A stretch of 64,000 nucleotides of DNA from Desulfurococcales archaeon. Its GTDB lineage: Archaea > Thermoproteota > Thermoprotei_A > Sulfolobales > NBVN01. The translations under genes and the position numbers were made by a program. Of this stretch, positions 1,320 to 50,626 are shown piece after piece; the first letter of the stretch is position 1, and each line of letters opens with the position of its first letter. The stretch spans positions 59,021-123,020 of the forward strand of contig WAKQ01000010.1 of NCBI GenBank assembly GCA_015523295.1. Direction: 5' to 3'. The notes beneath the pieces are model-generated. The model was not told where the DNA came from. It was given only the letters and a program-made list of their open reading frames with translations, and made no database searches.

Positions 1320-1367
1320 GTCATTATTTTTAACTCTAAATTATCAAGTACAAAGTGGTAGGTTTCC

Positions 1368-21983: not shown

Positions 21984-22202
21984 TCAGGTCACACCTTAAG
22001 GGGTATTAAATGTATATATTTTTTAAGTGTTATTAAACAAAATTATTGTAAAAACATGATTAGCATCCCAGAATGAATATTTGTATAGTTAGATTAATGT
22101 TTAGCAACAATTGAATAAATCCTTCAATCTTGTGGATTTTTTCCTATTAGAGAATAAGATTTTTTAGCCCGTAGCTCTCCCCACTAACGTAACTGGGTCG
22201 AG

Positions 22203-23297: not shown

Positions 23298-24874
23298 AAC
23301 CGATGGCTAAGGTAAGAATCGGGATAGACGTAGGAAGCACTCACACAGACTCTGTAGCCATTAATGAGAGAAACGAGGTTATCCACGCAGTTAAAGCTAG
23401 GACAACCTCAGACGTGACCTCAGGCATTATAAAGAGCTTGCGCAAGCTCATCATAGGGGGTAACCTAAAAACTGATGATGTAGTCGCCGTAATGTTCGGA
23501 ACAACTCATATCCTTAACGCAATAGTGCAGAGGAAAGGCTTGAGCAAGGTTGGGGTGTTGAGGATCGGTGCCCCTGCAACAACAGCTATTGAACCTATGC
23601 TTGACTGGCCTGAAGACCTTAGAGTTGCAGTTGAAGGAGCAAAATACATTGTCAGAGGAGGCCATGAGTATACTGGTGATGAGATAGCACCATTAGATGA
23701 GGAAGAGGTTAGGAAGGCAGCTATGAATTTCGCTGAAAGAGGTGTAGACTCAGTTGCGATAACCGGTGTATTTTCTATAGTAAACCCCGAGCATGAGTTG
23801 AGAGCATCCGAAATTATAAGAGAGCTTCTCCCTAGCATCCCTATAGTGATGTCGCATGAGATAGGGAGTATGGGTCTCCTTGAAAGAGAGAATGCAACAA
23901 TCCTTAATGCTGCATCCATTGGCGCTATGAGGAAAGCTATAAGAAGCCTGAGAGAAAGCCTTAATGATCTCGGGCTTCAGGACACGCCAATGTTCTTTGC
24001 TCAAAACGACGGTACTACGGCTAGAGCCGACTTCATAGAAAAGTACCCTATATTCACGGTAGTTGCCCCAATTTCAAACAGCCTTAGAGGCGCATATGTT
24101 CTAACAGGGATTAAAGACGCGATAGTTGTAGATACAGGGGGCACTACAAGCAATATAGGTGTCCTGACTAAGGGCTATCCTAGAGAGGCCCTCGAGATAG
24201 AGATAGGCGGCGTTAGAACTAACATTCGTTCCCCTGACATAGTTGCTATAGGTCTTGCAGGGGGCTCCATTGTGAAGGTATCTGATGGTAAGGTAAGGGT
24301 AGGTCCCGTAAGCGTTGGATATAAGCTTATAGAGGAAGGTATTTCATGGGGAGGGAGCACAATAACGGCCACAGACATAGCGATAGCTAAAGGGGTTATG
24401 AAGATCGATGATCCTGGATGCGATCCTGAGAGAGCTAAGAAGCTTATACCTCCTGAAATTGTGGAGAAGGCCTATGAGTACATGGTGAGCAAGCTAGAGG
24501 AATCCATAGATAAGGTTAAGACCTCTCCCGAACCGGAAACAGTTATCCTTGTAGGTGGCGGTTCACTCATGTGGCCTAAGAGGCTAAGAGGGGCAAAGGA
24601 AGTCATCAGACCTAAATACGCACAGTCAGCCAACGCGCTAGGGGCTGCGACAGCATTGGTAGGAGGGCTTGTTGAGAAGGCATTCTCATATGATCACATA
24701 AAGAGAGAGGATGCCATCAAGATAGCTTCAGAGGAAGCTACGAGGAAGGCTATCATGGCTGGTGCCGACCCGACTACGGTAGAGATCATGGAGGTAGAGG
24801 AGATCGCTCTCCCATATCTTCCAGGAAATGCCGTGAAGATAAGGGTTAAGGCAGTAGGCAAGCTCAAACTTTAA
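23288..24874 (+). CDS. Hydantoinase/oxoprolinase-family (HyuA-like, ASKHA ATPase fold) protein
   Basis: N-terminal RIGIDVGSTHTDS, VDTGGTTSNIG and LVGGGS motifs. 528 aa. Confidence 0.7.
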   Translation: MGVKPMAKVRIGIDVGSTHTDSVAINERNEVIHAVKARTTSDVTSGIIKSLRKLIIGGNLKTDDVVAVMFGTTHILNAIVQRKGLSKVGVLRIGAPATTAIEPMLDWPEDLRVAVEGAKYIVRGGHEYTGDEIAPLDEEEVRKAAMNFAERGVDSVAITGVFSIVNPEHELRASEIIRELLPSIPIVMSHEIGSMGLLERENATILNAASIGAMRKAIRSLRESLNDLGLQDTPMFFAQNDGTTARADFIEKYPIFTVVAPISNSLRGAYVLTGIKDAIVVDTGGTTSNIGVLTKGYPREALEIEIGGVRTNIRSPDIVAIGLAGGSIVKVSDGKVRVGPVSVGYKLIEEGISWGGSTITATDIAIAKGVMKIDDPGCDPERAKKLIPPEIVEKAYEYMVSKLEESIDKVKTSPEPETVILVGGGSLMWPKRLRGAKEVIRPKYAQSANALGAATALVGGLVEKAFSYDHIKREDAIKIASEEATRKAIMAGADPTTVEIMEVEEIALPYLPGNAVKIRVKAVGKLKL

Positions 24875-25028
24875 AACTGGTTCATTAACTCATTTGACCT
24901 TCACCTTCATTATCTTTCGAGACTAGGAATACAATTTATCTTTATGTTAACTTTAACTTTCCTTACTCGTAATTATATTATCGGGGTCATTCATAAAAGT
25001 AAAGATTCTCGGAAGCGAGAGCCTAGGT

Positions 25029-26000
25029 GTGAGGGGGCTTTCATGTTTAATCGAAACTAGGGATGCTAGGATTCTCATAGACCCTGGTATTGCCTTAGGC
25101 TTCACAAGATGGGGTCTTCATCCACATCCTGTCCAAGCAGTGGCGGGTGATATCATTCGGAAAGAGATCATTGACGATTGGAGGAGTGCGGACTATGTAG
25201 TTTTGAGCCATATGCATGGAGATCACGTTCCTCTCTTTAATGCTAATCCTTTTCAGCTGGATCTCAGCAGATTAACCTGTAGGGAGGGTTTGAAGATCAT
25301 TGCCCCGCCAGGTGGTGGCCCCTCTCGTGTTCAAAGAGAAAGACTAAGTAAGATAAAGTCATTGGAATGTGTTAAAGTAAGTGAGGTAAGGGGGACTGAA
25401 TTCTCAGAAGGTCCAATAACTGTCTACAGACCATATGCTCATGGATTGTCCAATAGTTCAACTGTAATGATCACTCTCATAGACTCAGATGAGAGGATAG
25501 TGCATGCTTCAGATACTCAGCTATTAAATTCAGAGGCTGCCCACCTCATAAATAGGCTCAAGCCTGATTTAGTAATAACTGATGGACCTCCAATATATAG
25601 GTACTTGAGCAGGCCTGAAATCATGGATACATTGCTGAGAACTGCTGAGAGAAATCTCAAAATAATCACCTCTCAAGCCTCTAAAGTGATCATAGATCAC
25701 CACCTTCTCAGGCATGACGAAGGCTATCAATGGCTTGCAAAGATGAAAAAGGCCTTAAAGGACACACTGATACAATCAGCTGCAGAATACATGGGTAGAA
25801 AGCCACTCCTGCTTGAGGCGTGGAGAAGAACGCTCTACTACCACTATCCCGTAAACAATAATTGGTTTATCAGCATGTATAGGCCAGAAGTAGAGAAACA
25901 TTTCCCGATATACGTTGAGATCGTGAAGGCTTCTCCCAAACTTAACGAGATCTCTGAAAAAAGTTTTGATAAGCTTTTATATACACTCGAAAAACAATAA
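25029..26000 (+). CDS. Metallo-beta-lactamase-fold hydrolase
   Basis: LIDPG and HMHGDH (HxHxDH) motifs. The reading frame stays open upstream and encodes a typical first beta-strand (IKVKILGSESLG), so the N-terminus is probably mis-set. Confidence 0.65.
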   Translation: MRGLSCLIETRDARILIDPGIALGFTRWGLHPHPVQAVAGDIIRKEIIDDWRSADYVVLSHMHGDHVPLFNANPFQLDLSRLTCREGLKIIAPPGGGPSRVQRERLSKIKSLECVKVSEVRGTEFSEGPITVYRPYAHGLSNSSTVMITLIDSDERIVHASDTQLLNSEAAHLINRLKPDLVITDGPPIYRYLSRPEIMDTLLRTAERNLKIITSQASKVIIDHHLLRHDEGYQWLAKMKKALKDTLIQSAAEYMGRKPLLLEAWRRTLYYHYPVNNNWFISMYRPEVEKHFPIYVEIVKASPKLNEISEKSFDKLLYTLEKQ

Positions 26001-35572: not shown

Positions 35573-35606
35573 AACTTGGAATAAAGAAATAGTAAGTAAT
35601 TGAATC

Positions 35607-36350
35607 TTAAAGAAGTATTCTCAATGGCGTATATGTTTTTGCTGGAATATAGGGAAGAACGTGGCGTGTTGTCTTTGGTGGAAGAACACCTCCGTTTTTG
35701 ACAATGCTCATAATCTCTTTCTTGCTAAGGGGACGACGCACTAATACAGATAGAACCTCACTTTTTTCTAGATCCTGAAGTGCGTCCTCAAGCAGTCCAT
35801 ACCATGCTAGTGAGATTAAGCCCTTCAAATTCAGTCTATCCAGTTCCTTTAGAATTGCTTTTTGCTCGTCAATCCCTCCAGGCACTTCGAAGCATGAGTC
35901 ATTACCTAAGACAATGAATGCCCGTCCATCAAGGTCTCTTGGCTTAAGTTTTCCTGGATCATGGCTGCATTGAAGAGCCCTTAGATGAACGCTTTTTGCA
36001 ATATTAGCAATGAATATCGGTGGACGGTCGGTGGCTGGATACCAGGTATAAACCTTTACAGATGGGTCGAAGTAGTCAATTATTATTGCTGGGATTTTGG
36101 ATGCTCCAAGGCGCTTAAGTGCTGCCCACCTATGGTGCCCGTCAACGATGAGATATTTCTTTGTTCCTGGAATGGGTGAGGCTATTATTGGCATGTCTAC
36201 TGCTTGCATTTTCATTATTGACTGCATGACTGAGTTAAGTCTCTCACTAACGATCTCCTCGTGAGGGAGTAGGTCATTAACGTTTAGCAATATTGGGGTG
36301 ATCCTCTTCACAGGAAGGTCGTACTTCGGAAGTCTTATCTTAAGTGACAA
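35607..36350 (-). CDS. ParB/sulfiredoxin-fold protein, candidate ADP-dependent serine kinase (SerK-like)
   Basis: KYLIVDGHHRWAALKRLG motif (DGHHR). 247 aa. It starts 6 nt downstream of the SerA-like gene in the same operon. Confidence 0.5.
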   Translation of the reverse strand: MSLKIRLPKYDLPVKRITPILLNVNDLLPHEEIVSERLNSVMQSIMKMQAVDMPIIASPIPGTKKYLIVDGHHRWAALKRLGASKIPAIIIDYFDPSVKVYTWYPATDRPPIFIANIAKSVHLRALQCSHDPGKLKPRDLDGRAFIVLGNDSCFEVPGGIDEQKAILKELDRLNLKGLISLAWYGLLEDALQDLEKSEVLSVLVRRPLSKKEIMSIVKNGGVLPPKTTRHVLPYIPAKTYTPLRILL

Positions 36351-36356
36351 TAGGCA

Positions 36357-37289
36357 TCACCGAGTTTCCTTCTGGAAAAATTCGATGAGCTTACTAGCCA
36401 CCTCTATGCCTGCCCTAGCCTGAGCCTCTATGGTTGAGGCCCCTATATGAGGGGTTAGAACAACATTGTTCAGCTTTGTGAGGGGATGTCCTTCGGGAAG
36501 AGGCTCCTCTTCATAGACGTCGAGGCCCGCACCAGCTATCCATCCCTCTTTAAGAGCTTTAATCAGAGCGTTGGTATCGACTATCCCGCCTCTAGAGGTA
36601 TTAATAAGTATAGCTGTTTTCTTCATTAGCTTAAGCCTACGCTCATTCACTAAATGATATGTTGAGTCTAGTAGAGGAACGTGAAGAGATACTACGTCAG
36701 CCCTTCTGAAAACTTCATCAAGCTCCAGCCTTAAAGCTTCCAGTGCCTTTACTATATCTTGAGGTGGTTCGACCACATCGTAGAAAATCACCTTCATTCC
36801 TAGCCCGAACTTAGCGATTCTCGCAACTTCCCTTCCTATCCTTCCGAAGCCAACAATTCCTATGGTCTTACCGTAAAGCTCATATCCCAAACATTCTTTT
36901 TTAACCCACTTGCCTTCCCTCAGATTTCTGTCGGCATAGGCAATCTTTCTGGCAACCGCTAGGAGCAGGCCAATGACGAGCTCAGCTACACTTCTAGATG
37001 GTGCAGCTGGAGCGTTGAATATGGCTATCCCCCTCTTCTTCGCCTCACTGACGTCTATATTATCCAACCCAACACCTGCCCTGGCAATGGCCTTAAGCCC
37101 CTTCCCTGCGGCGATTACCTCCTTAGGTACTTTTGGCTTACTCCTAACCACTAGCGCATCAGCGTCTTTTACAAGGTCTTTTAACTCTTCAACGCTTGGG
37201 TATTCCCTGTAAACAACATCAAATCCTGCCTCTTCTAGCATTTTAATGGCATCTGGATGTATGGGTGCGGCTACGAGGATCTTGACCAT
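36357..37289 (-). CDS. D-isomer-specific 2-hydroxyacid dehydrogenase (3-phosphoglycerate dehydrogenase or hydroxypyruvate reductase type, no ACT domain)
   Basis: NAD-binding motif GIVGFGRIGREVA, catalytic-region motifs SRGGIVD and LTPHIGAST. 310 aa. Confidence 0.8.
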   Translation of the reverse strand: MVKILVAAPIHPDAIKMLEEAGFDVVYREYPSVEELKDLVKDADALVVRSKPKVPKEVIAAGKGLKAIARAGVGLDNIDVSEAKKRGIAIFNAPAAPSRSVAELVIGLLLAVARKIAYADRNLREGKWVKKECLGYELYGKTIGIVGFGRIGREVARIAKFGLGMKVIFYDVVEPPQDIVKALEALRLELDEVFRRADVVSLHVPLLDSTYHLVNERRLKLMKKTAILINTSRGGIVDTNALIKALKEGWIAGAGLDVYEEEPLPEGHPLTKLNNVVLTPHIGASTIEAQARAGIEVASKLIEFFQKETR

Positions 37290-37295
37290 TGATTA

Positions 37296-38456
37296 TCACC
37301 TTCTCAATTCCTCTATTACCTTGCCAAGCTCCTCAAGCATTTCATCAATGTATTCATTGGGCATATAGCCCATATGCCCTATTCTGAAGCTCTTATTCTT
37401 TAGCTCGCCATATCCTTTAGCAAGTTCGTAACCTCTCTTTCTCATGGCCTCATATACTTCCAATCCATCTACACCTTCAGGTGCTCTCACACAGGTAATC
37501 GTAGGTGATTCAAAGCCTTTTCTAGCCAGGATCGATAGCCCGAGTTTCTTGACCCCTTCTCTAACCTTAGCCGCCCTTTCCTGATATAGGCTCAACCAAG
37601 CGTACTTACCTCCTATTTCATCAATAATTCTGAGTACCACATTAAGGGCAATGATCTGAGGTATGGGGGGTGTTGATGGAGTTGACCACTGTTTCTCCTG
37701 GTACTTCACGTACTTCAAGATATCGAAATACCATCCTCTGTTGGGTATATTCTCAGCTTTCTTTAGAGCGGCCTTGCTGAAGGCTCCAATAGCCAACCCC
37801 GGTGGTAAGCCAAAGGCCTTCTGACTACTGCTGAAGACGACGTCCACTCCCCATTCATCGAACTTTATATCTGCAGCACCCATAGCTGATACCGCATCAA
37901 CAAATACCAGTTTCCCATGCTCCTTAGCAACAGAGGCTAGTTCCTTAAGAGGATTGAGCACTCCAGTACTGGTCTCATTATATGTGATAGTAACGGCCTC
38001 CACAGATGGATTCTTCCTTAGGGCATCATCCAGTTCCTCAGGCAGGACGGGCTCCCCAAGACCTTTCTCTAAGACCACAGCCTTTCTTCCATTGCTTTCA
38101 ACTACTTCCCTGTATCTTTTCCCGAACGCTCCGATAACTGTAACCAAAACAGATCCATTTGGGGAAACAAAATTCCTAACGGAGGCCTCCATAATTCCAG
38201 TGCCGCTTGCTGGGAATAGAAGAACTATAGATTCTTGAGCTTCAAGAAAGGATGTGAGCCTTAGAATAGTGTCCTTATGTAGCGTTTGGTACTCCTTGGA
38301 TCGGTGGCTGAACATTTGGAAACTCATAGCCTGGAGGACTTCAGGAAAGCATGCAACAGGTCCTGCTGTAAATAGTTTGAGTGGCTTAGGCCAGACCATA
38401 TCCTTAACTTCATTAACGACCTCATTAAACGAGGTTTTCAATATTACATCACCCAT
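37296..38456 (-). CDS. Class-V aminotransferase (serine-pyruvate / phosphoserine aminotransferase type)
   Basis: PLP-lysine motif SSSQKAFGLPPG. The size and N-terminal FTAGPV pattern are typical of the class. Confidence 0.8.
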   Translation of the reverse strand: MGDVILKTSFNEVVNEVKDMVWPKPLKLFTAGPVACFPEVLQAMSFQMFSHRSKEYQTLHKDTILRLTSFLEAQESIVLLFPASGTGIMEASVRNFVSPNGSVLVTVIGAFGKRYREVVESNGRKAVVLEKGLGEPVLPEELDDALRKNPSVEAVTITYNETSTGVLNPLKELASVAKEHGKLVFVDAVSAMGAADIKFDEWGVDVVFSSSQKAFGLPPGLAIGAFSKAALKKAENIPNRGWYFDILKYVKYQEKQWSTPSTPPIPQIIALNVVLRIIDEIGGKYAWLSLYQERAAKVREGVKKLGLSILARKGFESPTITCVRAPEGVDGLEVYEAMRKRGYELAKGYGELKNKSFRIGHMGYMPNEYIDEMLEELGKVIEELRR

Positions 38457-38600
38457 GGTGTATTGTGTGAGGCCTTATTTATTGATTATTTTACAGAGTG
38501 GAGTAATTGATTAATCTACTTTGGCTTTTCACATAAATCTATATACTTTCATATAACCCTCCCTCTGAGGAAACTTTTTCCAGAATAACTTAAGTATACC

Positions 38601-38804
38601 TTGCCCTCCATACACCAACATGGTGTGAATGTGTTGAGAGTTGTGACATTTAAGTTGCCTGACGCCCTGCTCGAGGAGCTGGATATGTATGCTTTAAAGC
38701 ATGGGATGAGCAGGTCTGATGTTATTAGGTTAGCTATTAAGAACTTAGTTCTTCAATCAACTCGCAGACCTCGGTACAGGGTTAAGAGGATAGTGCTCAC
38801 GTAG
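38601..38804 (+). CDS. Ribbon-helix-helix (CopG-type) DNA-binding protein
   Basis: VVTFKLPDALLEELDMYALKHGMSRSDVIRLAIKNLV, followed by the basic tail RRPRYRVKRIVLT. The real start is probably GTG/TTG at 38625-38634. Confidence 0.6.
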   Translation: MPSIHQHGVNVLRVVTFKLPDALLEELDMYALKHGMSRSDVIRLAIKNLVLQSTRRPRYRVKRIVLT

Positions 38805-40264: not shown

Positions 40265-41188
40265 TCAGATGCCTAATACCTCTTTAATTAGTGCAGCTCT
40301 TGCAAACATGCCGTTCCTGGCCTGTTCGAAGTACTTGGCTTGAGGTAGCTCGTCTACGCTGGGATCCAGTTCCCATACCCTCGGCAACGGATGCATAATG
40401 ATGGGGATGTGTTTGAACTTAGACAGGAATTCCTTATCGATTTTGTAGGCACCCTTAAGCCTCTCATATTCCTCAGGATTACTGAACCTCTCCTTCTGTA
40501 ACCTTGTGACATAGAGCACGTCAAGTTCCTCAATCACATCCTCAGGCCTTCCAACCTTAACATACTTCACTTTTCCTTCTATCTTCTCAAGAATCTCATC
40601 TCTGATCTGTATCTGTTCAGGTGCGATGTAGTAAATTGTCACGTTGTTGAACCTAGTCAGCATGTATGAAAGGGATGAAGGCGTCCTCCCATATTTAAGG
40701 TCACCCATAATCCCAATTTTCAGGCCATCTATCTTACCGAGCTCCCTCCATATAGTGTAGAGGTCTAGCAGCGCCTGAGTGGGATGTTCGTTGGGGCCAT
40801 CCCCTGCATTTATTATAGGGGCTTTAACGATATCCTTAACCCTATGAGGGAAGAACGGTATTTTTTGCCTTATAACTATCACATCTGGGTCATAACCGTC
40901 TAAGATCTTCATAGTGTCCACATCGCTCTCTCCTTTAAGGACGCTTGAAGTGCTTACATCGAAATTAATTACCCGGCCGCCAAGTTTCTCCATAGCGAAC
41001 TGAAAGCTCAGCTTAGTTCTCGTGCTGGGTTCGAAGAATGCCGTCAACATTATTTTGCCCTTAGCATAGTCCAGAACTCCCCTCTCGGATATTTCAGTTC
41101 GAAGCTGATCAGCTAACTTGAACAACCTCTCAAGATCTTCTCTTTCAAAATCAAATGCTGATAATATGTCTTTTCCTTTCAAACTCAT
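40265..41188 (-). CDS. pyrB: Aspartate carbamoyltransferase catalytic subunit
   Basis: EPSTRTKLSF, HPTQALLD and MHPLPRV motifs. 307 aa. No pyrI is adjacent. Confidence 0.85.
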   Translation of the reverse strand: MSLKGKDILSAFDFEREDLERLFKLADQLRTEISERGVLDYAKGKIMLTAFFEPSTRTKLSFQFAMEKLGGRVINFDVSTSSVLKGESDVDTMKILDGYDPDVIVIRQKIPFFPHRVKDIVKAPIINAGDGPNEHPTQALLDLYTIWRELGKIDGLKIGIMGDLKYGRTPSSLSYMLTRFNNVTIYYIAPEQIQIRDEILEKIEGKVKYVKVGRPEDVIEELDVLYVTRLQKERFSNPEEYERLKGAYKIDKEFLSKFKHIPIIMHPLPRVWELDPSVDELPQAKYFEQARNGMFARAALIKEVLGI

Positions 41189-41267
41189 TTTATGTACACC
41201 TCGTACATATACCTAGCAAGCGTTTAAAGATTTTTGATTTAAAAATTAATTTATTTTAGTTAAAAAG

Positions 41268-41780
41268 CTATTCTTTGCTTATCTCAGCAACTTTTGTCGT
41301 CCCTTTCCTGAGCTCCTCAGCGGCTTTCATTGCAGCTTTTACGATGTTCACGTAGCCCGTGCATCTGCAAAGGTTTCCTCTTATATAGTCCCTGATCTCC
41401 TCCTCGGTTGGATTGGGATTCTCTTTAAGTAGCTTATCTATCATTATGACGAAGCCTGGGGTGCAGTAACCACATTGGACACCGGCCTCCTCTATAAGAG
41501 CCTTCTGCACTAAAGTTAGCTCCCTGCTTTTCGCAAGGCCTTCCACGGTAGTCACTTCATGACCGTCTACGTCAACTGCCAGAGTAAGGCATGAGAGGAC
41601 CGGCTCGCCATCAAGTAACACGGTGCAGGCCCCACATTCACCAATTCCGCAAACATATTTGGGTCCTGTATATCCGAACTTCTCCCTGAGCAGGTTTAGC
41701 AGTAGCTCGTTAGGCTCGACCTCTGTCCTGACTTTTTGCCCGTTAAGCGTGAACTCTATAGGTATCTTCATTTCATCCAC
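41268..41780 (-). CDS. Molybdopterin hydroxylase small subunit, [2Fe-2S] (CoxS/CutC type), cluster 1
   Basis: CGIGECGACTV, QCGYCTPGF and NLCRCTGY motifs. Confidence 0.85.
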   Translation of the reverse strand: MDEMKIPIEFTLNGQKVRTEVEPNELLLNLLREKFGYTGPKYVCGIGECGACTVLLDGEPVLSCLTLAVDVDGHEVTTVEGLAKSRELTLVQKALIEEAGVQCGYCTPGFVIMIDKLLKENPNPTEEEIRDYIRGNLCRCTGYVNIVKAAMKAAEELRKGTTKVAEISKE

Positions 41781-42706
41781 CCCTTAACAACCCTCTCGTG
41801 AGAAAGGATGAGCGCGTCCTCAACTATAACTTTAGAGACTTCTCTACGGTAAAACGCTGTTGACCTGACGTCGTCGATAGGGCTTATTTCCGTCTCAACA
41901 AGCTTTACGTTCTCCCTTATGACCTCGGGGGTGAAGGGTTTGCCTTTTAAGGCCTCTTCTGTTTTCCAAGCTCGTACTGGTGTGGGAGCAGCCGACCCTA
42001 TTGCTATCCTAGCGAACTTAATTCTGCCGTCCTCCACCTTCACTGCAGTTGCTGCACTTATTTTAGCTAGGTCCATTGCCGTCCTGGCCACCTTGATGAA
42101 CGCTGAACCTGTTCCTGGTTCAGGCTTAGGTATTATTATCTCTTTCAGGAGCTCGTCAGGCCTCATCACTGTCTTACCAGGTCCTTTGAAGAACTGGGTT
42201 ATTGGTACTTCTCTCTCCCCTTCCCTGCTCGCTAGTATTAGGCGTGCTTCAAGAACCATCAGCGGCGGGGCGCTGTCAGCTGCCGGAGAAGCATTACACA
42301 AATTACCCCCAATAGTGGCCATGTTCCTTATTTGAGTTCCTCCCATAGCCTTAACTGCATCGTAGAGTGCAGGGAAGTACTTCATTATTACGTCAGATCT
42401 CTCAAGCTCCCTCCACTTGGTGAGGGCCCCTATACGTACTTCACCGCCTTCATCGCGTATGTAGCTGAGTTCCTTAAGCTTCTTGATGTTGATCACGTAT
42501 TTCGGCTCGACAACCCTCATCTTCATCTTCACTAGCAGGTCAGTGCCACCTGCAAGAACTTTTGCCTCACTACCATACTTATTCAGTAATTCCAATGCCT
42601 CCTCAAGCGATGAAGGTGCGAAGTATTCGAACCTTACTGGTATTATATGCGTATTATACAGGTTATGTCTTGAAGGCCTTATATTGACTTGGGTCATGTC
42701 TTTCAC
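41768..42706 (-). CDS. Molybdopterin hydroxylase medium subunit, FAD-binding (CoxM/CutB type), cluster 1
   Basis: AGGTDL and GGNLCNASPAADS motifs, with C-terminal ISPIDDVRSTAFYRR. 312 aa. Confidence 0.85.
   Translation of the reverse strand: MKDMTQVNIRPSRHNLYNTHIIPVRFEYFAPSSLEEALELLNKYGSEAKVLAGGTDLLVKMKMRVVEPKYVINIKKLKELSYIRDEGGEVRIGALTKWRELERSDVIMKYFPALYDAVKAMGGTQIRNMATIGGNLCNASPAADSAPPLMVLEARLILASREGEREVPITQFFKGPGKTVMRPDELLKEIIIPKPEPGTGSAFIKVARTAMDLAKISAATAVKVEDGRIKFARIAIGSAAPTPVRAWKTEEALKGKPFTPEVIRENVKLVETEISPIDDVRSTAFYRREVSKVIVEDALILSHERVVKGWMK
42128..42319. repeat. Near-identical tract shared with the paralogous FAD-subunit gene at 50070..50261 (inverted orientation)
   Basis: 42179..42319 matches 50070..50210 at 139/141 nt, and both differences are synonymous. 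42128..42157 matches 50232..50261 at 30/30. The 21 nt between these blocks and the flanks outside them are strongly diverged. Confidence 0.9.
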
Positions 42707-45057
42707 CTCCCTTTCTTCTTAAGGGCTTCAAGGATTCTTTCTGGGGTTATGGGCAGCTCGTAGAACCGCACTCCTATCGCGTTGTAGATAGCGTTAGCGA
42801 CGGCCCCAGCAACCGAGTTAAGTGCGGCTTCACCCAGTCCCTTAGCTCCGTGAGGTCCTGTGGGTTCGTAGGTGTGAGCGAATATAACCTGGAAGTCATC
42901 TAATTTAGGCATGTCTGGCGCTGTCAGGATCTTGTAGTCGGTTATGAAGCCCTTATTCGTTAGCTCACCTGTTCTGGGATCGTATATCGTGTCTTCTAAT
43001 GTAGCCATCCCCCAACCCTGGGCAAATCCTCCATGGAGCTGTCCTGCAGCATAGTCTGGGTTTATCACGGTTCCAATATCGGCGCCTGCAATTACCTTAA
43101 CTGGCCTCACCTTCCCCGTGTATGTATCTACCTCGACCTCAACAAAGTATACTGTGAAGCTGGGCGGTGCAGCCTTAGACCTGTAGGTGACTGTAGTGGA
43201 TATTGTTCCCCAGTTTCTTTGCCATGCTATAGTTGCGAGGTCTTTAAGCGTTATCCTCATCTGCGGGTTATCTCTGACATACACCACTGCCTGCCCAAGT
43301 TCCTTATCATAGCCAAGCTCAAGCATGTCCTGATTTACCGCTTTATTCAGGACTCTTATGGCATAGTTGAATATCTTATTCTTTAATTCTCTAGCTGCCT
43401 GAACTGCAGCACCGCCTCCCACATAGGTACCTCTCGACGCATGCGTACATACGTCGTATAGCGTTGTTTGAGTGTCAGACCACACAAGGTTTATGAGGTC
43501 AGGTGGAACCCCAAGCTCCTCAGCAATTATCTTTACATGAGCGTCAAGTGTACCGCCTCCATGATCCTGTAACGCGGTTATATAGTCAATGGTTCCATCT
43601 TCATTCAACTTCAGTATAGCGCCTGTGTAGTCAATTGTCTCGCCGGAGATAGGCCCTCCTGCACCTGAGGTGTGGAAAGACCTGCCGACGCCTATACCTC
43701 TCCTATATCTCCCCGTCTTCTCAGAGGGTGGTCTCCTCCTCTCCCAGCCGATTAGTTCTTTACCCCTCTGCAGGAGTTCAGGCACTCCATCAGATCTTAT
43801 AATGCTCTTCACGGTAGGACCCTGTCCCCAGAATATATCGCCCTTACCCACATAGTTCTTAAGGCGGAACTCAACCGGGTCAATCCCAAGTTCCTCAGCC
43901 ATCTCATCTATTAGGGTCTCAACAGCCCAAGAGACCTGTGGTGCACCGTAACCTCTAAAGGCGCATGTTGGTACTTTATTTGTGTAGACCGCTTTACCAA
44001 CATATCTTATGTTCTTCCATTTATAGAGGGAGACAAACCATCCTAAAGCAGTTCCTAGTAATGGATATGCCTGAATCTGATGTGCCCCTATGTCCATGAT
44101 GTTCTCAAGTTCTCCGGCAATAAGCGTGCCATCACTTTTAGCTCCAGCACGTATCTTGAAATGCATCTGGTACGCAGCATGGTCATAAATGTCTTCTTCA
44201 CGTGTCATTGATATTTTAACGGGTTTCCTAGCCTTCAGGCATAATGCAACGCTAATTGGCACTACCGGATTTATCTGGATGCTTGACCCGAAGGAGCCTC
44301 CTATAGGCACCTTCACTACGTTGATCTTGCTCATAGGGATGTCAAAGATCTGGCTGATCAGAATTCTAGTGTTATGGATTGTTTGGGTCGTGGAGTATAT
44401 GGTGATGCTCCCATCACTATGGGGTATACAGACAGATGTCTTCGGCTCGAGTTGCATGTGGTACCTTCTGTTAGTTCTGAACCTTCTCTCAAGAACCACG
44501 TCTGCTTCCTTCAGTGCCTTATCTACATCACCCTCACTGTACTCGAGAGTGCATCCAACATTGTTTTTAACATCGATCCACTCATCTCCCTTCAATATCC
44601 TCTTATGTATTAATGGGGCGCTAGGTGACATCGCTTCGAAAGGATCGAGTATAGGTTCATACACTCTTTCGAATTCAACCTTTATTGCCTCAAGAGCTCT
44701 CTGGGCTGCTTCCTCCGTAGGTGCAGCGACCGCCGCGATCGCGTCTCCTAAGTAGCGAGGGTGCTTAGTTAGGACTCTGTAATCCTTGTAGGTCACTTCA
44801 AAGATGCTGACTAATCTAGGATTGAAGATTTTGTCAGGAACATCGTCAGGCGTTATCACGACAGCGCCCATCCTCTCAGCTTCTGAGGTGTCTATCCTCT
44901 TAACGTCTGCGAATGCGTAAGGACTCTTAAAGACCCTGCCAACCAGCATTCCCGGAACATAGATATCGGAAGAGAACTTCAGGGTTCCAGTTACCTTAGG
45001 GATACCATCCTTCCTAATTGTTTTCTTACCAATGAAGATATGTTTCGGTTCCTCCAA
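42703..45057 (-). CDS. Molybdopterin hydroxylase large subunit (xanthine dehydrogenase / aldehyde oxidoreductase / CutA family), cluster 1
   Basis: 784 aa. Family motifs include FRGYGAPQ, EVEVDTYTGKVR and GPHGAKGLGEAA. Confidence 0.85.
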   Translation of the reverse strand: MEEPKHIFIGKKTIRKDGIPKVTGTLKFSSDIYVPGMLVGRVFKSPYAFADVKRIDTSEAERMGAVVITPDDVPDKIFNPRLVSIFEVTYKDYRVLTKHPRYLGDAIAAVAAPTEEAAQRALEAIKVEFERVYEPILDPFEAMSPSAPLIHKRILKGDEWIDVKNNVGCTLEYSEGDVDKALKEADVVLERRFRTNRRYHMQLEPKTSVCIPHSDGSITIYSTTQTIHNTRILISQIFDIPMSKINVVKVPIGGSFGSSIQINPVVPISVALCLKARKPVKISMTREEDIYDHAAYQMHFKIRAGAKSDGTLIAGELENIMDIGAHQIQAYPLLGTALGWFVSLYKWKNIRYVGKAVYTNKVPTCAFRGYGAPQVSWAVETLIDEMAEELGIDPVEFRLKNYVGKGDIFWGQGPTVKSIIRSDGVPELLQRGKELIGWERRRPPSEKTGRYRRGIGVGRSFHTSGAGGPISGETIDYTGAILKLNEDGTIDYITALQDHGGGTLDAHVKIIAEELGVPPDLINLVWSDTQTTLYDVCTHASRGTYVGGGAAVQAARELKNKIFNYAIRVLNKAVNQDMLELGYDKELGQAVVYVRDNPQMRITLKDLATIAWQRNWGTISTTVTYRSKAAPPSFTVYFVEVEVDTYTGKVRPVKVIAGADIGTVINPDYAAGQLHGGFAQGWGMATLEDTIYDPRTGELTNKGFITDYKILTAPDMPKLDDFQVIFAHTYEPTGPHGAKGLGEAALNSVAGAVANAIYNAIGVRFYELPITPERILEALKKKGR

Positions 45058-45163
45058 TATCGGATCACGATTAAAACCTCATGAATTCTGTTAAAAGTAT
45101 TTCGTAGTTTATAAAAGGAAAACCTATTTATTTCACATTCATCTATGAAAGACGGTAATTGTT

Positions 45164-46504
45164 ATGAGCGGAGGAAGCATCCTACTTAAAGGAGGGATTC
45201 TGATAACTCCCTCGGCGTCCATCAAAGCTGACATAAAAGTTGTCGATGGTAAGATCGCTGAAATAGGGGCAGCGCTAAACAATGCAGGCGTTGAAGAGGT
45301 TCTTGACGTATCAGGAATGTACGTTTTTCCCGGTGTTGTCGATGAGCACGTGCATATGAGGGAACCCGGACTTGAGTATAAGGATGACTTCACCCATGGT
45401 ACTGCAGGAGCTGCTGTAGGGGGTGTTACTACAGTCTTGGAAATGCCTAACACTAAGCCACCTGTTGATTCAGCAACCATATTGGAGGAAAAGAAAAGGC
45501 TCCTCTCGCAGAAGGCAAACGTGGATTTTGGGCTCTACGGCGTCATCCATAATACTAATGCACATAACTTTGATGATATAGTTGCCGCAGGTGCAGTCGG
45601 TTTCAAAATATTCTTAGGACCCACTACAGGCAACATACCACCTCCCGACGATGGGACATTATATGAGGTGCTAGAGAAATCAGCTAAGTATGATGTCCCA
45701 CTAGCTTTCCACGCTGAAAACGCTGACCTGGTGAAGTACTTCACCCAGAAAGTGAGATCAAGCGGAAGAACAGATCCTTCTGCACACACCGATGCCAGAC
45801 CTCCTATATGTGAGGAGGAGTCGATAAGGAAGTTAATTATACTATCTAAGTGGACGAATGGGAGGGTTCATATAGTACACATAGCGGCTAAGGAGGGTGT
45901 CGAGCTAGTGAGGGAGGCTAAGCATATGGGATATAAAGTCACGGGGGAGACATGTCCACATTACTTACTACTAAACACCGAGGATTACAAGAAGTATGGG
46001 ACGGCGATAAAGGTGAACCCCCCTATAAGAGATAGGGAACATCAAGAGGCCTTATGGAAAGGAGTATTGGACGGTACGATATATACTCTAGGTTCAGATC
46101 ATGCACCACATTCAGCAGAAGAAAAGAAGGGAGACATTTGGAAATGTGCAGCAGGCTTCACAGGGGTGCAAACCTTTCTCCCCCTGATGCTCGACCAAGC
46201 GCTTAAGGGGAGACTCCCGATAAATAAGATCCCCCAACTAATGAGCGAAAACCCTGCAAAGCTCTTCAGGCTATGGCCTAGGAAGGGCGCAATCATGGTT
46301 GGAAGTGATGGCGACTTTGCAATTGTAGACCCCAATGGCACAACAACCATTACTAAGGAATGGCTGATTGCTAAATATCCAATAACTCCCTATATAGGGT
46401 GGAAACTGAAGGGAAGTATCAGATACACTATTCTCAGAGGGCAGATAATAGCGAAGGATGGCAAGCTCATTCAACCTAGGAAAGGCACTTTCATTAAACC
46501 TTAA
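45164..46504 (+). CDS. pyrC: Dihydroorotase (cyclic amidohydrolase superfamily)
   Basis: VDEHVHMREPG and EMPNTKPP motifs typical of type-I PyrC, FKIFLG (the carboxylated-Lys region), SDHAPH. 446 aa. Confidence 0.7.
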   Translation: MSGGSILLKGGILITPSASIKADIKVVDGKIAEIGAALNNAGVEEVLDVSGMYVFPGVVDEHVHMREPGLEYKDDFTHGTAGAAVGGVTTVLEMPNTKPPVDSATILEEKKRLLSQKANVDFGLYGVIHNTNAHNFDDIVAAGAVGFKIFLGPTTGNIPPPDDGTLYEVLEKSAKYDVPLAFHAENADLVKYFTQKVRSSGRTDPSAHTDARPPICEEESIRKLIILSKWTNGRVHIVHIAAKEGVELVREAKHMGYKVTGETCPHYLLLNTEDYKKYGTAIKVNPPIRDREHQEALWKGVLDGTIYTLGSDHAPHSAEEKKGDIWKCAAGFTGVQTFLPLMLDQALKGRLPINKIPQLMSENPAKLFRLWPRKGAIMVGSDGDFAIVDPNGTTTITKEWLIAKYPITPYIGWKLKGSIRYTILRGQIIAKDGKLIQPRKGTFIKP

Positions 46505-46857
46505 GTTAATATACGGAGTAATAAAATTAAATTCTCTAATTTCAAATTTATTTTCTGAATTATGTAGATGAATGCAAAAATAATTATATTATTATCTTGA
46601 TTAGAGTACATAATTTTCCTTAATCCTACTCTGAACTACTGCTTATCTTCCCCTAAATCTTAAAAAGCAAATTAGAAAAGCATCAGTGAATTGCTAATTA
46701 ATTCATCGTATTTAATTATATATTAATTTTAGGTATATGGAATAAGCTGCTGAAAGTGCCTTATACCTAGTCAGGAATGCTCCAAGGTAGAGAAAGCCTA
46801 GTTGCATAGATCTACAGGGAATCATTACTAAAAGAATCAACCATGTTACTGGGGATT

Positions 46858-47157
46858 TTACTCTCTATGCTCGAAGTCTGGAGCTATGTCTAACTTCTCT
46901 CCTTTCTTTACAGCTATGAGGAAGAGTTTACCGTTAAGGACAAGTGTCTCCTTAACTATATAGCCTTCCTTCCCTAGGTTTCTGAAGATGTGCTGGAGTC
47001 TGATAGGTATTAAGTCGGTTGTAATTACCCTAACATCATCTTCGCTAACTCTTTCTTCTTTGGCAGCGTTTTCAATTGCTTCATGTAGAAGCCGTCTCTC
47101 TTCATCTGTTAAACCTTCAGGCTCAGGTGAATAGGTGAGGCCTTCTTTGAATCCCAA
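46858..47157 (-). CDS. Hypothetical small protein
   Basis: 99-aa ORF isolated within a 0.9-kb AT-rich spacer. No motif recognised. Confidence 0.3.
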   Translation of the reverse strand: MGFKEGLTYSPEPEGLTDEERRLLHEAIENAAKEERVSEDDVRVITTDLIPIRLQHIFRNLGKEGYIVKETLVLNGKLFLIAVKKGEKLDIAPDFEHRE

Positions 47158-47385
47158 CTTAATACACCTTGAAATATTGGGTTTCCCTGTAATATTAAGC
47201 CTATGCTTCGATTCACCTGCCTCTTAAGTCTCTTCATACTAATTTATTTGATTAAATGAAAAAAACAGGTATTGTTTACAAGTCAGAATATCTGATTTAT
47301 ATTAATTCATGGTTAAAAAGTGAAAAGCTTTTTAACGCATAATCCTCCGTTACTATGGATATCTAAACTTTAAAGAGGTGATTTA

Positions 47386-49728
47386 ATGAGTGCAGCAGAA
47401 GATCCGTATACTTTAATGGAGAAATGGCTTAAGGCGAAGGAGTTCTTGGTGGTTGGCAAGGGCGTTAGGAGAGCTGACGCTATTGAAAAAGCTTTAGGAA
47501 TGGCTAGGTACGTTGAAGATTTCTATATGCCAGGCCATATGTTATTTGTTAAGCAGGTGTTAAGCACTGAACCCCATGCAAGGATATTAGGTGTGGATGC
47601 TTCGAAAGCCTTAGAGATTCCAGGTGTTGAGGGGGTATTCACAGCAAAGGATATTCCTGGGGAAAATCAGGTCGGCTATGCTCTGCCTGATCAGCCTCTA
47701 TTAGCTGATGGCAAGGTCAGGTTTGTCGGCGATCTTGTGGCCCTCGTAGCCGCCAGGGATTTCGATACAGCGATAAGGGCTGCTGAAGAGGTCAGGATTA
47801 AATATGAGCCTCTGCCCTATGTTCTAGATCCTCTTGAAGCTATGAAGAGAACCGACGTTTTAGTTCATGAGGAGGTCGGCTCTAACATAGCTTTTAGAAC
47901 CAAGGTAAGAAAGGGCAATGTGGAGGAAGGGTTTGCTAAGTCAGACGTGATCGTAGAGAACGAATATAGGACCCATCATCAAGACCACCTTTACTTAGAG
48001 ACAGAGGGCGCGTTAGCCCTTCCAGAGCTGGGAGACAGGCTTACTGTCATATCGGCAGGCCAGTATCCCCACCTAGTGAGGGCCATAGTGTCGAGGGTTG
48101 TAGGCCTTCCAGAGAGCCATGTTAAGGTGATAATACCCTATATGGGAGGTGGTTTCGGCGGTAAGGATGATGAGGGCCCCTTAGTTGCTGCTAAGGCGGC
48201 GTTGGTTGCAAGGCTTACCGGGAAGCCGTCCTTCCTTCTCTACACAAGGGAAGAATCCCTCATAATGCATCCTAAGAGAGAAGCTACTGTGATTAAGTAC
48301 AAGAGTGGCGCGTCAAAGGATGGAAAGCTGCAGGCCATTGATGTGCAAATAATTCATGATACAGGTGCATTCACTAATAGAGGACCTTTCATATTGTGGA
48401 GGGCGACAGTTCACGCTTCAGGGCCATATAAGGTGCCGCACGCAAAGGTAGACGGATACTGCATATATACCAACAAAGTATACCAAGGTTCCTATAGGGG
48501 ATTCGGAAATCCATCCGTGCAGTTTGCAGCCGAGGCCCAAATGGATAGACTTGCTGAGAAGCTTGGAATGGATCCAGTGGACTTCCGCCTTAAGAACCTT
48601 CTGAGACCTGGAGATACAACAATCACTAATCAGCTCCTAGACCATTCCGTAGGTGTGGCTGATGCAGTTGCAAAACTAGCTGAAACGGCTGGGTGGAGAG
48701 AGAAGAGGGAGAGGTACTCTAAGGAAAACGGAGGAAGGTATAGGAAAGGTATAGGGATAGGAGTCGCTTGGCACGGCATAAGCACCTCCAGAGGCGTGCC
48801 TGACTGGTCTAACGCCTTAGTGAAGATAGAGAAGGACGGGTCGGTTAGTGTGCATACAGGCATTGTTGAGATGGGGCAGGGCTCTCCCGTAAGCTCCCAC
48901 CGTCAAATAGCTGCCGAGATCTTAGGTGCACCCATAGATCTGGTGACTGTTGACTTCGGCACCACTGACGCTCCTGACACTGGGGCGACGCATGCATCAA
49001 GAGGTACAAGTATCGGTGCTATAGGCGTCTATGTAGCGTCAGCTAAGCTTAGAGAGAGGCTAAACAGGCTGGCGGCTGAGCTCCTCGAGACATCACCTGA
49101 CGACATAGTGATTAAGGATGGTAAGGCTTATGCTAGGAGCAATCCCAGCAAGAGTATTAGTTGGAAAGACCTCATCAAGGAGGCTTACGCTAGAGGAGTG
49201 GAGATGAGCGCGACAGGCTACTTCTTCCTACCTAAGGGTAAGTTCGATGACCAGAAAGGGCAGGGCTATGCCTATCCAGCCTTCAGTTATGTTGCTATGA
49301 TAGCTGAGGTCGAGGTAGATACATACACGGGGAAGGTGAGGGTTCTGAGGATATGGCCTGGCCTGGCTGCGGGGAAGATAATAAATCCAACTCAGGTAGA
49401 AGGGCAGGTAGAAGGAGCTGCAGTTCAAGGAATGGGCTATGCCCTAATGGAGCAGTTCGTCTTCGACGATAAGGGCAGGATACTAAACGCTGATATGACT
49501 GACTATGTGATCCCGACAGCTTTAGATGCGCCTGAAATAATGAAGCCTGTATATGTTGAAGACATATTCAAGTATGGACCCTTCGGAGCTAAGGGTGTGG
49601 GTGAGATGGCATTGATACCGGCACCCGCAGCAATAGCTAATGCAGTGTCGAATGCCTTAGGGATCAAGGTTACTAAGCTACCTCTAACCTCAGAGAATGT
49701 TTACTTCCTGATTAAGGGGAAGAGATAG
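47386..49728 (+). CDS. Molybdopterin hydroxylase large subunit, cluster 2
   Basis: 780 aa. Motifs GGGFGGKDD, YRGFGNPS, EVEVDTYTGKVR and GPFGAKGVGEMA. Confidence 0.85.
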   Translation: MSAAEDPYTLMEKWLKAKEFLVVGKGVRRADAIEKALGMARYVEDFYMPGHMLFVKQVLSTEPHARILGVDASKALEIPGVEGVFTAKDIPGENQVGYALPDQPLLADGKVRFVGDLVALVAARDFDTAIRAAEEVRIKYEPLPYVLDPLEAMKRTDVLVHEEVGSNIAFRTKVRKGNVEEGFAKSDVIVENEYRTHHQDHLYLETEGALALPELGDRLTVISAGQYPHLVRAIVSRVVGLPESHVKVIIPYMGGGFGGKDDEGPLVAAKAALVARLTGKPSFLLYTREESLIMHPKREATVIKYKSGASKDGKLQAIDVQIIHDTGAFTNRGPFILWRATVHASGPYKVPHAKVDGYCIYTNKVYQGSYRGFGNPSVQFAAEAQMDRLAEKLGMDPVDFRLKNLLRPGDTTITNQLLDHSVGVADAVAKLAETAGWREKRERYSKENGGRYRKGIGIGVAWHGISTSRGVPDWSNALVKIEKDGSVSVHTGIVEMGQGSPVSSHRQIAAEILGAPIDLVTVDFGTTDAPDTGATHASRGTSIGAIGVYVASAKLRERLNRLAAELLETSPDDIVIKDGKAYARSNPSKSISWKDLIKEAYARGVEMSATGYFFLPKGKFDDQKGQGYAYPAFSYVAMIAEVEVDTYTGKVRVLRIWPGLAAGKIINPTQVEGQVEGAAVQGMGYALMEQFVFDDKGRILNADMTDYVIPTALDAPEIMKPVYVEDIFKYGPFGAKGVGEMALIPAPAAIANAVSNALGIKVTKLPLTSENVYFLIKGKR

Positions 49729-49739
49729 GGGGTGAGAGC

Positions 49740-50626
49740 ATGTTCTACAGGATACCTGAAATAAACTACATATATGTCTCAAAACTTGATGAAGCCCTAG
49801 AGGTCTTACACACGCTGGACAACGCGAGAGTTCTAGCGGGTGGTACTGACCTAGTGATGGATCTGAAAATAGGCCGTATAAGGCCGGAGACCATTGTAGA
49901 CATATCTAGGGTTGACGAGCTTAAGTACATTAAAGATGAGGGGGATTATCTAAGGATCGGTGCTCTAACCACTCTTCAAGATATAGTGGAGTCAAGCCTT
50001 GTAAGGGCTAAAGCTCCTGTACTTGTAAAGGCTGTGAATGAGATGGCCTCATGGCAAGTCCGGAATGTTGCCACTATTGGGGGTAATTTGTGTAATGCTT
50101 CTCCGGCAGCTGACAGCGCCCCGCCGCTGATGGTTCTTGAGGCACGCCTAATACTAGCGAGCAGGGAAGGAGAGAGAGAAGTACCAATAACCCAGTTCTT
50201 CAAAGGACCTAGGAAAACTGAGCTCAGGAAGGACGAGCTCCTGAAAGAGATAATAATACCTTATGAGAGGGGTAGCGGGCAGCACTATATTAAGCTGGGA
50301 AGGAGGGATGCGTTCACTCTCTCCATAGTTTCAGTAGCGGCTTTAGTTAAGGTGAGTAATGGAAAGTTCAGCGATGTGAGAATAGCGCTGAACTCTGTGG
50401 CTCCAACACCTGTAAGAGCCTATGATGCTGAGAACGCATTAAAGGGTAGGGAAGTGAATCTAGAGAATATTGAGAATGTGTCGAAGCTGGTGCTCAACTC
50501 CATATCCCCCCAATAACTGACGTCAGGGCTTCAGCTGAGTACAGGAAAGAGATGTCAGTGGTTTTAACTCGTGATGCATTACTAGCTGCGTTAAAGGATT
50601 TAGGCATTAACTTAGGAGGTGAGTAA
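49740..50626 (+). pseudogene. Molybdopterin hydroxylase FAD-binding medium subunit, cluster 2, interrupted by a frameshift at a C6 run
   Basis: The annotated frame stops at 50514..50516 after ...LNSISPQ. The -1 frame continues as ITDVRASAEYRKEMSVVLTRDALLAALKDLGINLGGE* (to 50626). This is the conserved C-terminus of the family; compare ISPIDDVRSTAFYRRE in cluster 1. Confidence 0.7.
50070..50261. repeat. Partner of the near-identical tract at 42128..42319
   Basis: See 42128..42319. The shared tract encodes ATIGGNLCNASPAADSAPPLMVLEARLILASREGEREVPITQFFKGP, identical in both paralogs. Confidence 0.9.

Follow-up and report, generated by a model that had tools for sequence, protein, structure and literature searches.

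A SerK-type ParB-fold protein and its probable phosphate donor in a three-gene serine operon of a Desulfurococcales archaeon

Introduction

A gene for a ParB-like protein that stands among genes of amino-acid metabolism raises the question of whether its product partitions DNA or acts as an enzyme and, if it is an enzyme, with which phosphate donor and in which direction it works. We consider this question for a 247-amino-acid (aa) ParB-like protein encoded by the last of three adjacent genes in a stretch of 64,000 nucleotides (nt) from a Desulfurococcales archaeon (GenBank assembly GCA_015523295.1, contig WAKQ01000010.1, positions 59,021 to 123,020 of the forward strand), the whole of which is referred to below as the 64-kb window and is numbered from its first letter. 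The original prediction for this locus, made without database searches, held that three minus-strand genes 6 nt apart encode a class-V aminotransferase, a SerA-like dehydrogenase without an ACT domain and a protein with the ParB-type DGHHR motif; that the last of these is a candidate ADP-dependent serine kinase and not a partition protein; and that the operon ties a ParB-fold enzyme directly to the phosphorylated serine pathway. The layout is borne out by the calling of open reading frames (ORFs), which gives three minus-strand ORFs with gaps at 37290-37295 and 36351-36356 of exactly 6 nt each:

37296..38456, minus strand: gene 1, class-V (AGXT-like) pyridoxal phosphate (PLP) aminotransferase, 386 aa, ATG start (Pfam, PDB 2dr1 match)
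36357..37289, minus strand: gene 2, short D-3-phosphoglycerate dehydrogenase homologue, 310 aa, ATG start (PDB 1wwk match, TIGR01327)
35607..36350, minus strand: gene 3, SerK (free L-serine kinase) homologue of the crenarchaeal type, 247 aa, TTG start (Pfam, PDB 5x0b, AlphaFold2 model)

The third gene encodes a SerK-type protein

The 247-aa protein is matched by two Pfam domains that both score above their gathering thresholds, ParB_N (PF02195, residues 15-95, 1e-9) and SerK_C (PF18231, residues 102-205, 2.5e-17), and the ParB-type stretch quoted for it, KYLIVDGHHRWAALKRLG, is present with DGHHR at residues 70-74. Its length agrees with the two-domain SerK build, which runs to about 240-255 aa and lacks a helix-turn-helix. 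Its best NCBIfam match is the archaeal SerK model (2e-86, 289.1 bits). A phmmer comparison aligns residues 6-242 with the free serine kinase of Thermococcus kodakarensis (PDB 5x0b, E = 1e-58), and the Pyrococcus furiosus protein 1vk1 is a full-length match as well (E = 3.5e-60). SbnI, ParB and Noc show sequence similarity to no more than the first ~100 residues, and at E-values no better than 1e-6.

The structural comparison gives a similar picture. AlphaFold2, given 40 homologues, produced a confident model (mean predicted local distance difference test score, pLDDT, of 94.9), which Foldseek superimposed on 5x0b with template-modelling (TM) scores of 0.92/0.94 and a root-mean-square deviation of 1.9 Å over 244 columns. 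The TM score to SbnI is 0.67, and ParB, Noc, KorB and sulfiredoxin reach only ~0.25-0.28, through the ~80-residue N-domain only. The protein is thus like T. kodakarensis SerK (TK0378; 5x0b, 5x0e, 5x0f, 5x0g, 5x0j and 5x0k) and P. furiosus PF0380 (1vk1) in fold, and it has in common with them the catalytic Glu and the motifs DGHHRWA, TW.P, R205, K210 and PKTTRH. The catalytic Glu is conserved as E31 (in LPHEE), which corresponds to E30 of the T. kodakarensis enzyme, the residue changed to Q/A in PDB 5x0j/5x0e. All 29 residues that are invariant across 119 homologues are present, E31 among them, together with H30, DGHHRWA at 70-76, T102, W103, R205, K210, T228 and R229. The nearest homologues show 58-61% identity, and an identical protein is also encoded on a metagenome scaffold (ENA ERZ23495891, REYS20-1) and in the metagenome-assembled genome (MAG) GCA_027008205.1.

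It is also important to consider a bacterial enzyme of related build. Staphylococcal SbnI, an ATP-dependent free serine kinase, likewise combines a ParB-like N-domain with a C-domain, but it is only 17-20% identical to the 247-aa protein and its sequence similarity is restricted to the N-domain. SbnI belongs to staphyloferrin B siderophore synthesis and is also a DNA-binding regulator.

The full-length sequence and fold matches to T. kodakarensis SerK, the catalytic Glu, the conserved operon and the phosphoglycerate dehydrogenase (PGDH)-type residues of the neighbouring dehydrogenase (the last two described below) together give strong support to the assignment of the 247-aa protein as a SerK-type metabolic enzyme and not a partition ParB. 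The comparison with SerK, ParB and sulfiredoxin that had been proposed as a check, made here by profile and fold, places it firmly with SerK and not with DNA-binding ParB or sulfiredoxin.

The phosphate donor is probably ATP or another nucleoside triphosphate

In a neighbour-joining tree of the SerK homologues, with a small third clade as the outgroup, a Thermococcales clade (n = 27, including P. furiosus 1vk1) is separated from a crenarchaeal clade (n = 88) that includes the 247-aa protein. The crenarchaeal clade also holds the enzymes of Desulfurococcus mucosus (Desmu_0904, ADV65208.1) and D. amylolyticus 1221n (DKAM_0858, ACL11184.1), both of which carry the UniRef name "ATP-dependent L-serine kinase" in a cluster look-up. 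With both Desulfurococcus enzymes added, 200 bootstrap replicates support the crenarchaeal clade at 100% and the Thermococcales clade at 99%. These two enzymes and that of Staphylothermus marinus reportedly used ATP and not ADP and accepted other nucleoside triphosphates (NTPs). Identity of the 247-aa protein is 47-48% with the two Desulfurococcus enzymes and 39-42% with Thermococcales SerK. It resembles the Desulfurococcus enzymes in clade, length and two-domain build, but falls in another subclade, sister to sequence P0003 and near Zestosphaera-type sequences.

Eight alignment columns are fixed differently between the two clades, and the 247-aa protein has the crenarchaeal state at all eight of them:

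Crenarchaeal state (numbering of the 247-aa protein): E32, I33, R37, D52, M53, A77, L173, L194
Thermococcales state at the same columns: Q31, L32, E36, W51, K52, G76, M168, M189

The Desulfurococcus enzymes match it at 7/8 of these columns (E32, R37, D52, M53, A77, L173 and L194), the exception being I33, which is L in Desulfurococcus. Changes of charge between the clades occur from E36 to R37 and from W51-K52 to D52-M53. The outgroup clade agrees with the Thermococcales in having E, W, K and G, and on that evidence the crenarchaeal states would be derived. R37 lies directly after the catalytic PHEE loop, and D52-M53 lie in a stretch that aligns with the "GxxQPI" nucleotide-pocket strand of ParB. 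We regard R37, D52 and M53 as reasonable candidates for a switch between ATP and ADP as donor, their proximity to the pocket being judged from the alignment with the ParB motif.

The published record points the same way. A paper cited by title in PMC9700705 (Mori et al. 2021, J Bacteriol) concerns a serine kinase of Staphylothermus marinus that depends on ATP, and PMC9700705 itself lists serine kinase among the cases in which Thermococcales use ADP and other archaea ATP. We therefore consider it considerably likelier that the 247-aa protein uses ATP or another NTP than that it uses ADP, a judgement that follows from clade membership and not from a demonstrated sequence rule.

The original prediction had named an ADP-dependent kinase, which would work like TK0378 (Ser + ADP to phosphoserine + AMP). 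Its serine-kinase part stands, given the match to 5x0b (1e-58, TM 0.92), and the full-length homology, fold and catalytic Glu held in common with the T. kodakarensis enzyme would suit the ADP part too; the donor is not directly readable from sequence. However, the protein falls outside the Thermococcales clade (99%) and inside the clade of two ATP-named enzymes (100%), with 8/8 of the clade-separating residues in the crenarchaeal state. In this respect it differs from TK0378 and PF0380, and use of ADP now seems unlikely.

The small third clade of SerK-like sequences (P0117-P0120) has ~31% identity and keeps E30, DGHHR, R205, K210 and TTRH along with the Thermococcales-type E/W/K/G, and it differs at Q163 and Y184-G185. 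Its members stand alone, without serA or an aminotransferase gene; one (L019, 3436-4197) adjoins a divergent adenylate kinase gene, and a partial match related to this clade occurs in a Methanobacteriota MAG (L007, 6001-6381).

The dehydrogenase and the aminotransferase

The 310-aa product of the second gene has the Pfam domains 2-Hacid_dh_C (2e-69) and 2-Hacid_dh (1e-34). The PGDH model TIGR01327, of 525 positions, is matched at positions 1-304 only, which means that the ASB/ACT regulatory part is absent, in agreement with the predicted SerA-like enzyme without ACT; the score of 338.8 bits is below the cut-off of 454 of this model, which includes the ASB/ACT part. The closest structure is the PGDH of Pyrococcus horikoshii (1wwk, PH1387; E = 5e-125), followed by glyoxylate reductases (3e-74) and human PHGDH (2e-70). 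The human enzyme offers a guide to the substrate: its R54, S55 and R75 come to lie on the substrate, and the phosphate of 3-phosphoglycerate is bound by R135' from the partner subunit (PMC8081924). R49-S50, R70 and K130 of the 310-aa protein align with R54-S55, R75 and R135' (with Lys for Arg at the last); in archaeal glyoxylate reductases the first two of these sites are occupied by T-M-L and N. The presence of the PHGDH substrate residues favours a phosphorylated substrate. The catalytic R/H pair would be R233 and H281. T. kodakarensis possesses its own SerA (TK1966), shown genetically to be its 3-phosphoglycerate dehydrogenase (Makino et al.).

The first gene encodes a 386-aa protein with the Pfam domain Aminotran_5 (9e-26), as its class-V label had implied, and the stretch quoted for it, SSSQKAFGLPPG, is found at residues 209-220, with an SSSQK motif in which K213 is the expected PLP lysine. 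It is the orthologue of P. horikoshii PH1308 (PDB 2dr1), with which it aligns over residues 9-386 (E = 3.7e-171). It is not a canonical SerC, reaching 47 bits with TIGR01364 against a cut-off of 443-444. The phosphoserine step in T. kodakarensis has been assigned to TK1548 (Makino et al.), and we presume that the protein encoded here is a phosphoserine:2-oxoacid aminotransferase. With E-values from 1e-58 to 4e-171, the matches of the operon proteins to solved structures are not due to chance.

Proposed route and direction

With fair confidence we read the three-gene operon as a phosphorylated route that would link free serine to central metabolism by way of an ATP/NTP-dependent SerK. In the proposed scheme SerK would convert L-serine and an NTP, most probably ATP or another NTP in place of ADP, to O-phosphoserine; the class-V aminotransferase would convert phosphoserine and a 2-oxoacid to 3-phosphohydroxypyruvate and an amino acid; and the short SerA would reduce 3-phosphohydroxypyruvate with NADH to 3-phosphoglycerate. 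Serine taken up by an archaeon that uses peptides or amino acids could in this way enter glycolysis or gluconeogenesis, and cysteine synthesis may be a second outlet for phosphoserine, as it is in T. kodakarensis. What the comparisons establish is homology, fold, the retention of catalytic and substrate residues, the recurrence of the operon and the place of the kinase in its clade; we infer from these that the protein is a kinase, which donor it uses, what the aminotransferase acts on and which way the flux runs.

The direction seems reasonable on energetic grounds. The equilibrium of PGDH favours 3-phosphoglycerate. The kinase step, if driven by an NTP, would be effectively irreversible, with a Keq (equilibrium constant) of ~4e-4 for the reverse reaction of serine kinase (GapMind 2026 preprint). 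An equilibrium that favours 3-phosphoglycerate at one end and a strongly forward kinase step at the other make the route thermodynamically suited to the use of serine. The 64-kb window also encodes a branched-chain amino-acid ATP-binding cassette (ABC) transporter and three further aminotransferases (Pfam), which would fit with an amino-acid-consuming lifestyle.

Several points weigh against this reading. The 289.1 bits of the SerK homologue fall below the NCBIfam SerK equivalog cut-off of 380 bits (NF053625), and the nearest characterised enzymes are only 47-48% identical to it. The named members of the crenarchaeal clade (P0002-P0087) are called "DUF5603 domain-containing protein" or "chromosome partitioning protein ParB" at NCBI, so the cut-off appears to be tuned to the Thermococcales type. 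The assignment of ATP draws on UniRef names, the title of a cited paper and what is reported of the S. marinus and Desulfurococcus enzymes. The aminotransferase is nearer to AGXT/PhnW-type enzymes than to SerC by the NCBIfam models, and since it is such a class-V enzyme its phosphoserine activity is read from context only, which makes it the weakest link of the route; PH1308 and TK1548, the proteins to which one would compare it, are both annotation-only in a 2023 survey. Finally, a Pfam scan of the window, covering its 57 ORFs of 100 aa or more, finds no SerB, no CysK/OPSS and no GlyA (the two PALP proteins of the window are threonine-synthase-like and not OPSS), and nothing in the window shows the next step for phosphoserine or 3-phosphoglycerate.

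A different direction would follow if SerK ran from phosphoserine and a nucleoside diphosphate to serine and an NTP, or both ways, and so replaced SerB, with the operon amounting to complete serine biosynthesis from 3-phosphoglycerate. The original prediction had offered the role of a missing phosphoserine-phosphatase equivalent as an alternative to that of SerK. The gene order of a serC-like gene, a serA-like gene and a third gene does resemble a biosynthetic operon, there is no SerB among the window ORFs, and a precedent is offered by the DUF1015 "SerBK", which is reported to replace SerB though it is serine-kinase-like (GapMind 2026 preprint). DUF1015 "SerBK" is also like the present case in being encoded with serA and serC and in being discussed for both serine use and synthesis, but it is a different, bacterial family with only remote structural kinship to SbnI. 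Against a reverse reaction stands its unfavourable Keq, which becomes worse at physiological ATP/ADP ratios, and the genetics of T. kodakarensis point to serine use and cysteine synthesis and not to serine synthesis (Makino et al.). The missing SerB is a negative for the 64-kb window alone, a small part of the genome from a scaffold that measures at least 287 kb, and the present analysis yields no evidence for an archaeal SerK that replaces SerB. We judge this direction improbable, a little more so than the use of ADP; if true, it would parallel the proposal for the unrelated bacterial "SerBK".

Less probable again, and in our estimate very unlikely, is a non-phosphorylated route in which the aminotransferase would turn serine into hydroxypyruvate, the dehydrogenase would act as hydroxypyruvate reductase and the kinase would act on glycerate or another product. 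Such a route is suggested by the AGXT / serine-glyoxylate type of the aminotransferase, whose orthologues are annotated "serine aminotransferase", and by the 317 bits that the dehydrogenase scores with glyoxylate reductase models against 339 bits with PGDH. However, the dehydrogenase is far nearer to 1wwk than to the glyoxylate reductase structures and has the R-S, R and K contacts of PHGDH to substrate and phosphate that glyoxylate reductases lack. The clade relatives of the kinase are named L-serine kinases in UniRef, and relatives in the crenarchaeal clade are said to have been shown to phosphorylate L-serine.

What the 247-aa protein shares with ParB, Noc and sulfiredoxin is the ~80-residue ParB/Srx nucleotide-binding N-domain and a GxxR-type motif (DGHHR here), and unlike them it has the extra SerK_C domain. 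Sulfiredoxin is a single ~100-aa domain with its catalytic Cys in an FGGCHR motif. As an identity for the 247-aa protein it was rejected, since the DGHHR motif is without Cys, there is an additional C-domain of 150 aa and the overlap with Srx structures is limited to ~80 residues. The original prediction had argued against a partition protein. The reading as a DNA-binding protein of ParB type, for partition or regulation and perhaps moonlighting like SbnI (a serine kinase and transcriptional regulator by its NCBIfam name), has the ParB_N domain in its favour but hardly any likelihood, given that the partition model TIGR00180 reaches 34.2 bits where its cut-off is 58.45 and in the N-domain only, that Pfam finds no helix-turn-helix in the protein, that it has no C-terminal dimerisation domain, that the ParB structures align over ~80 residues and that no ParA-type partner occurs among the 57 window ORFs.

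Operon junctions and candidate flanking signals

The phosphorylated serine route set out above would presumably be expressed from one transcript, and the sequence around the three genes offers the following elements, whose functions are putative and read from sequence:

37295..37300, minus strand: Shine-Dalgarno-like GGTGAT, 5 nt before the dehydrogenase ATG, overlapping the aminotransferase TGA stop
36356..36361, minus strand: Shine-Dalgarno-like GGTGAT, 5 nt before the serK TTG, overlapping the dehydrogenase TGA stop
38475..38493, minus strand: candidate archaeal promoter, AT-rich TATA-like stretch taaaataatcaataaataa, 19-37 nt upstream of the first ATG
35573..35606, minus strand: candidate archaeal terminator, 34-nt convergent intergenic spacer with the T-rich tract ctatttctttatt 3' of the serK stop

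Both internal junctions thus have the same build, in which GGTGAT is followed by 5 nt and a start codon and the TGA of the preceding gene lies inside the motif. Such junctions with embedded stops support a single transcript as well as the TTG start of serK. GGTG motifs like these also precede internal genes in related loci, and a TTG start of serK is likewise called in L012, L014 and L016. The candidate promoter taaaataatcaataaataa would give a leaderless mRNA or one with a very short leader, and together with the junctions and the terminator-like spacer it would mark the three genes as one transcription unit.

Conservation of the cluster

A single contig scan matched uncultured relatives only, the best of them uncultured Desulfurococcales. 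The order aminotransferase-serA-serK recurs in seven related loci (L001, L002, L004, L006, L012, L013 and L016), among which L012 and L013 are Zestosphaera MAGs, and HtpX and DUF2192 neighbours are common to L001, L002 and L006. A serA-serK pair without the aminotransferase occurs in L010 and L014/L015, which come from a Desulfurococcus sp. MAG and another MAG.

In a Desulfurococcaceae MAG (L005, 1189-6023) serK does not adjoin the serA homologue, which is found ~3.2 kb upstream, with an intervening insertion. Identities to the loci L001, L002 and L006 are 51-54% for SerK, 75% for the aminotransferase, 69-70% for the dehydrogenase, 62-64% for HtpX and 66-67% for DUF2192, and SerK is far more diverged than its operon partners and neighbours within the same syntenic loci.

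The cluster has been described before. Makino 2016 found that in D. mucosus, S. marinus and S. hellenicus serK adjoins genes for both PGDH and an aminotransferase, whereas in D. kamchatkensis its only such neighbour is the dehydrogenase gene, and read the cluster as support for a serine assimilation pathway (PMC5120207). The present locus is like the Desulfurococcales cases, including S. marinus Smar_0555, in its genomic link to a serA-type dehydrogenase, several of them also having the class-V aminotransferase; it has the three-gene form, unlike the two-gene serA-serK of D. kamchatkensis, and differs also from T. kodakarensis, where serK stands outside any operon (PMC5120207). The proposed tie between a ParB-fold enzyme and the phosphorylated serine pathway is sustained by the PGDH-type residues and the conserved operon, but it is not new, as Makino 2016 had described the cluster for Desulfurococcales. 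The link between SerK and a serine operon is already published, and the present locus adds a fairly divergent member to an enzyme family, within an operon type, that were both known before.

Other features of the window

Beyond the operon, a small ribbon-helix-helix ORF (38601-38804, plus strand) scores 64.7 bits (cut-off 60) with the NCBIfam family aCcr1 of archaeal cell-cycle regulators. It sits between the serine operon and a divergent class-I/II aminotransferase gene, where no gene is called publicly, and it is absent at the same position in related loci, in which the spacer is only ~260 nt.

At 21-2561 (plus strand) a gene of the sodium:dicarboxylate-symporter family is followed directly by a threonine-synthase-like PLP enzyme with an N-terminal extension of ~65 residues, and at 56811-58127 (plus strand) a threonine-synthase-like PALP domain at residues 61-333 is joined in one protein with a transcriptional regulator domain of PadR type at the C-terminus (366-431), an uncommon union of enzyme and regulator. 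The gene at 5154-8366 (plus strand) encodes a radical-SAM protein of 1070 aa that carries an HMPTM-type zinc ribbon and is interrupted by an intein with a LAGLIDADG homing-endonuclease domain.

Two sets of xanthine-dehydrogenase/CO-dehydrogenase-type molybdoenzyme subunits (large, FAD and 2Fe-2S) are encoded at 20607-26000 and 40265-50516. Beside them stand genes for an amidohydrolase, a carbamoyltransferase, a hydantoinase A-like protein, an S-Me-THD-like protein and a cytosine/purine permease, and the molybdoenzyme regions with these neighbours suggest a region for the breakdown of nucleobases or heterocycles.

Implications

The operon itself opens no new biological question. Its use lies partly in annotation: of the 88 crenarchaeal-clade sequences found, nearly all are unnamed or called "DUF5603" or "ParB", and the NCBIfam SerK cut-off misses the 247-aa protein and, judging by the annotation of its relatives, the rest of the clade too. 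The fixed contrast of R37/D52/M53 with E36/W51/K52 supplies a short list of residues that may set the choice between ATP and ADP in a kinase of ParB fold. For the biology of these archaea, the finding shows that the serine route centred on SerK, published for Desulfurococcales, reaches into deeper uncultured lineages of crenarchaea.

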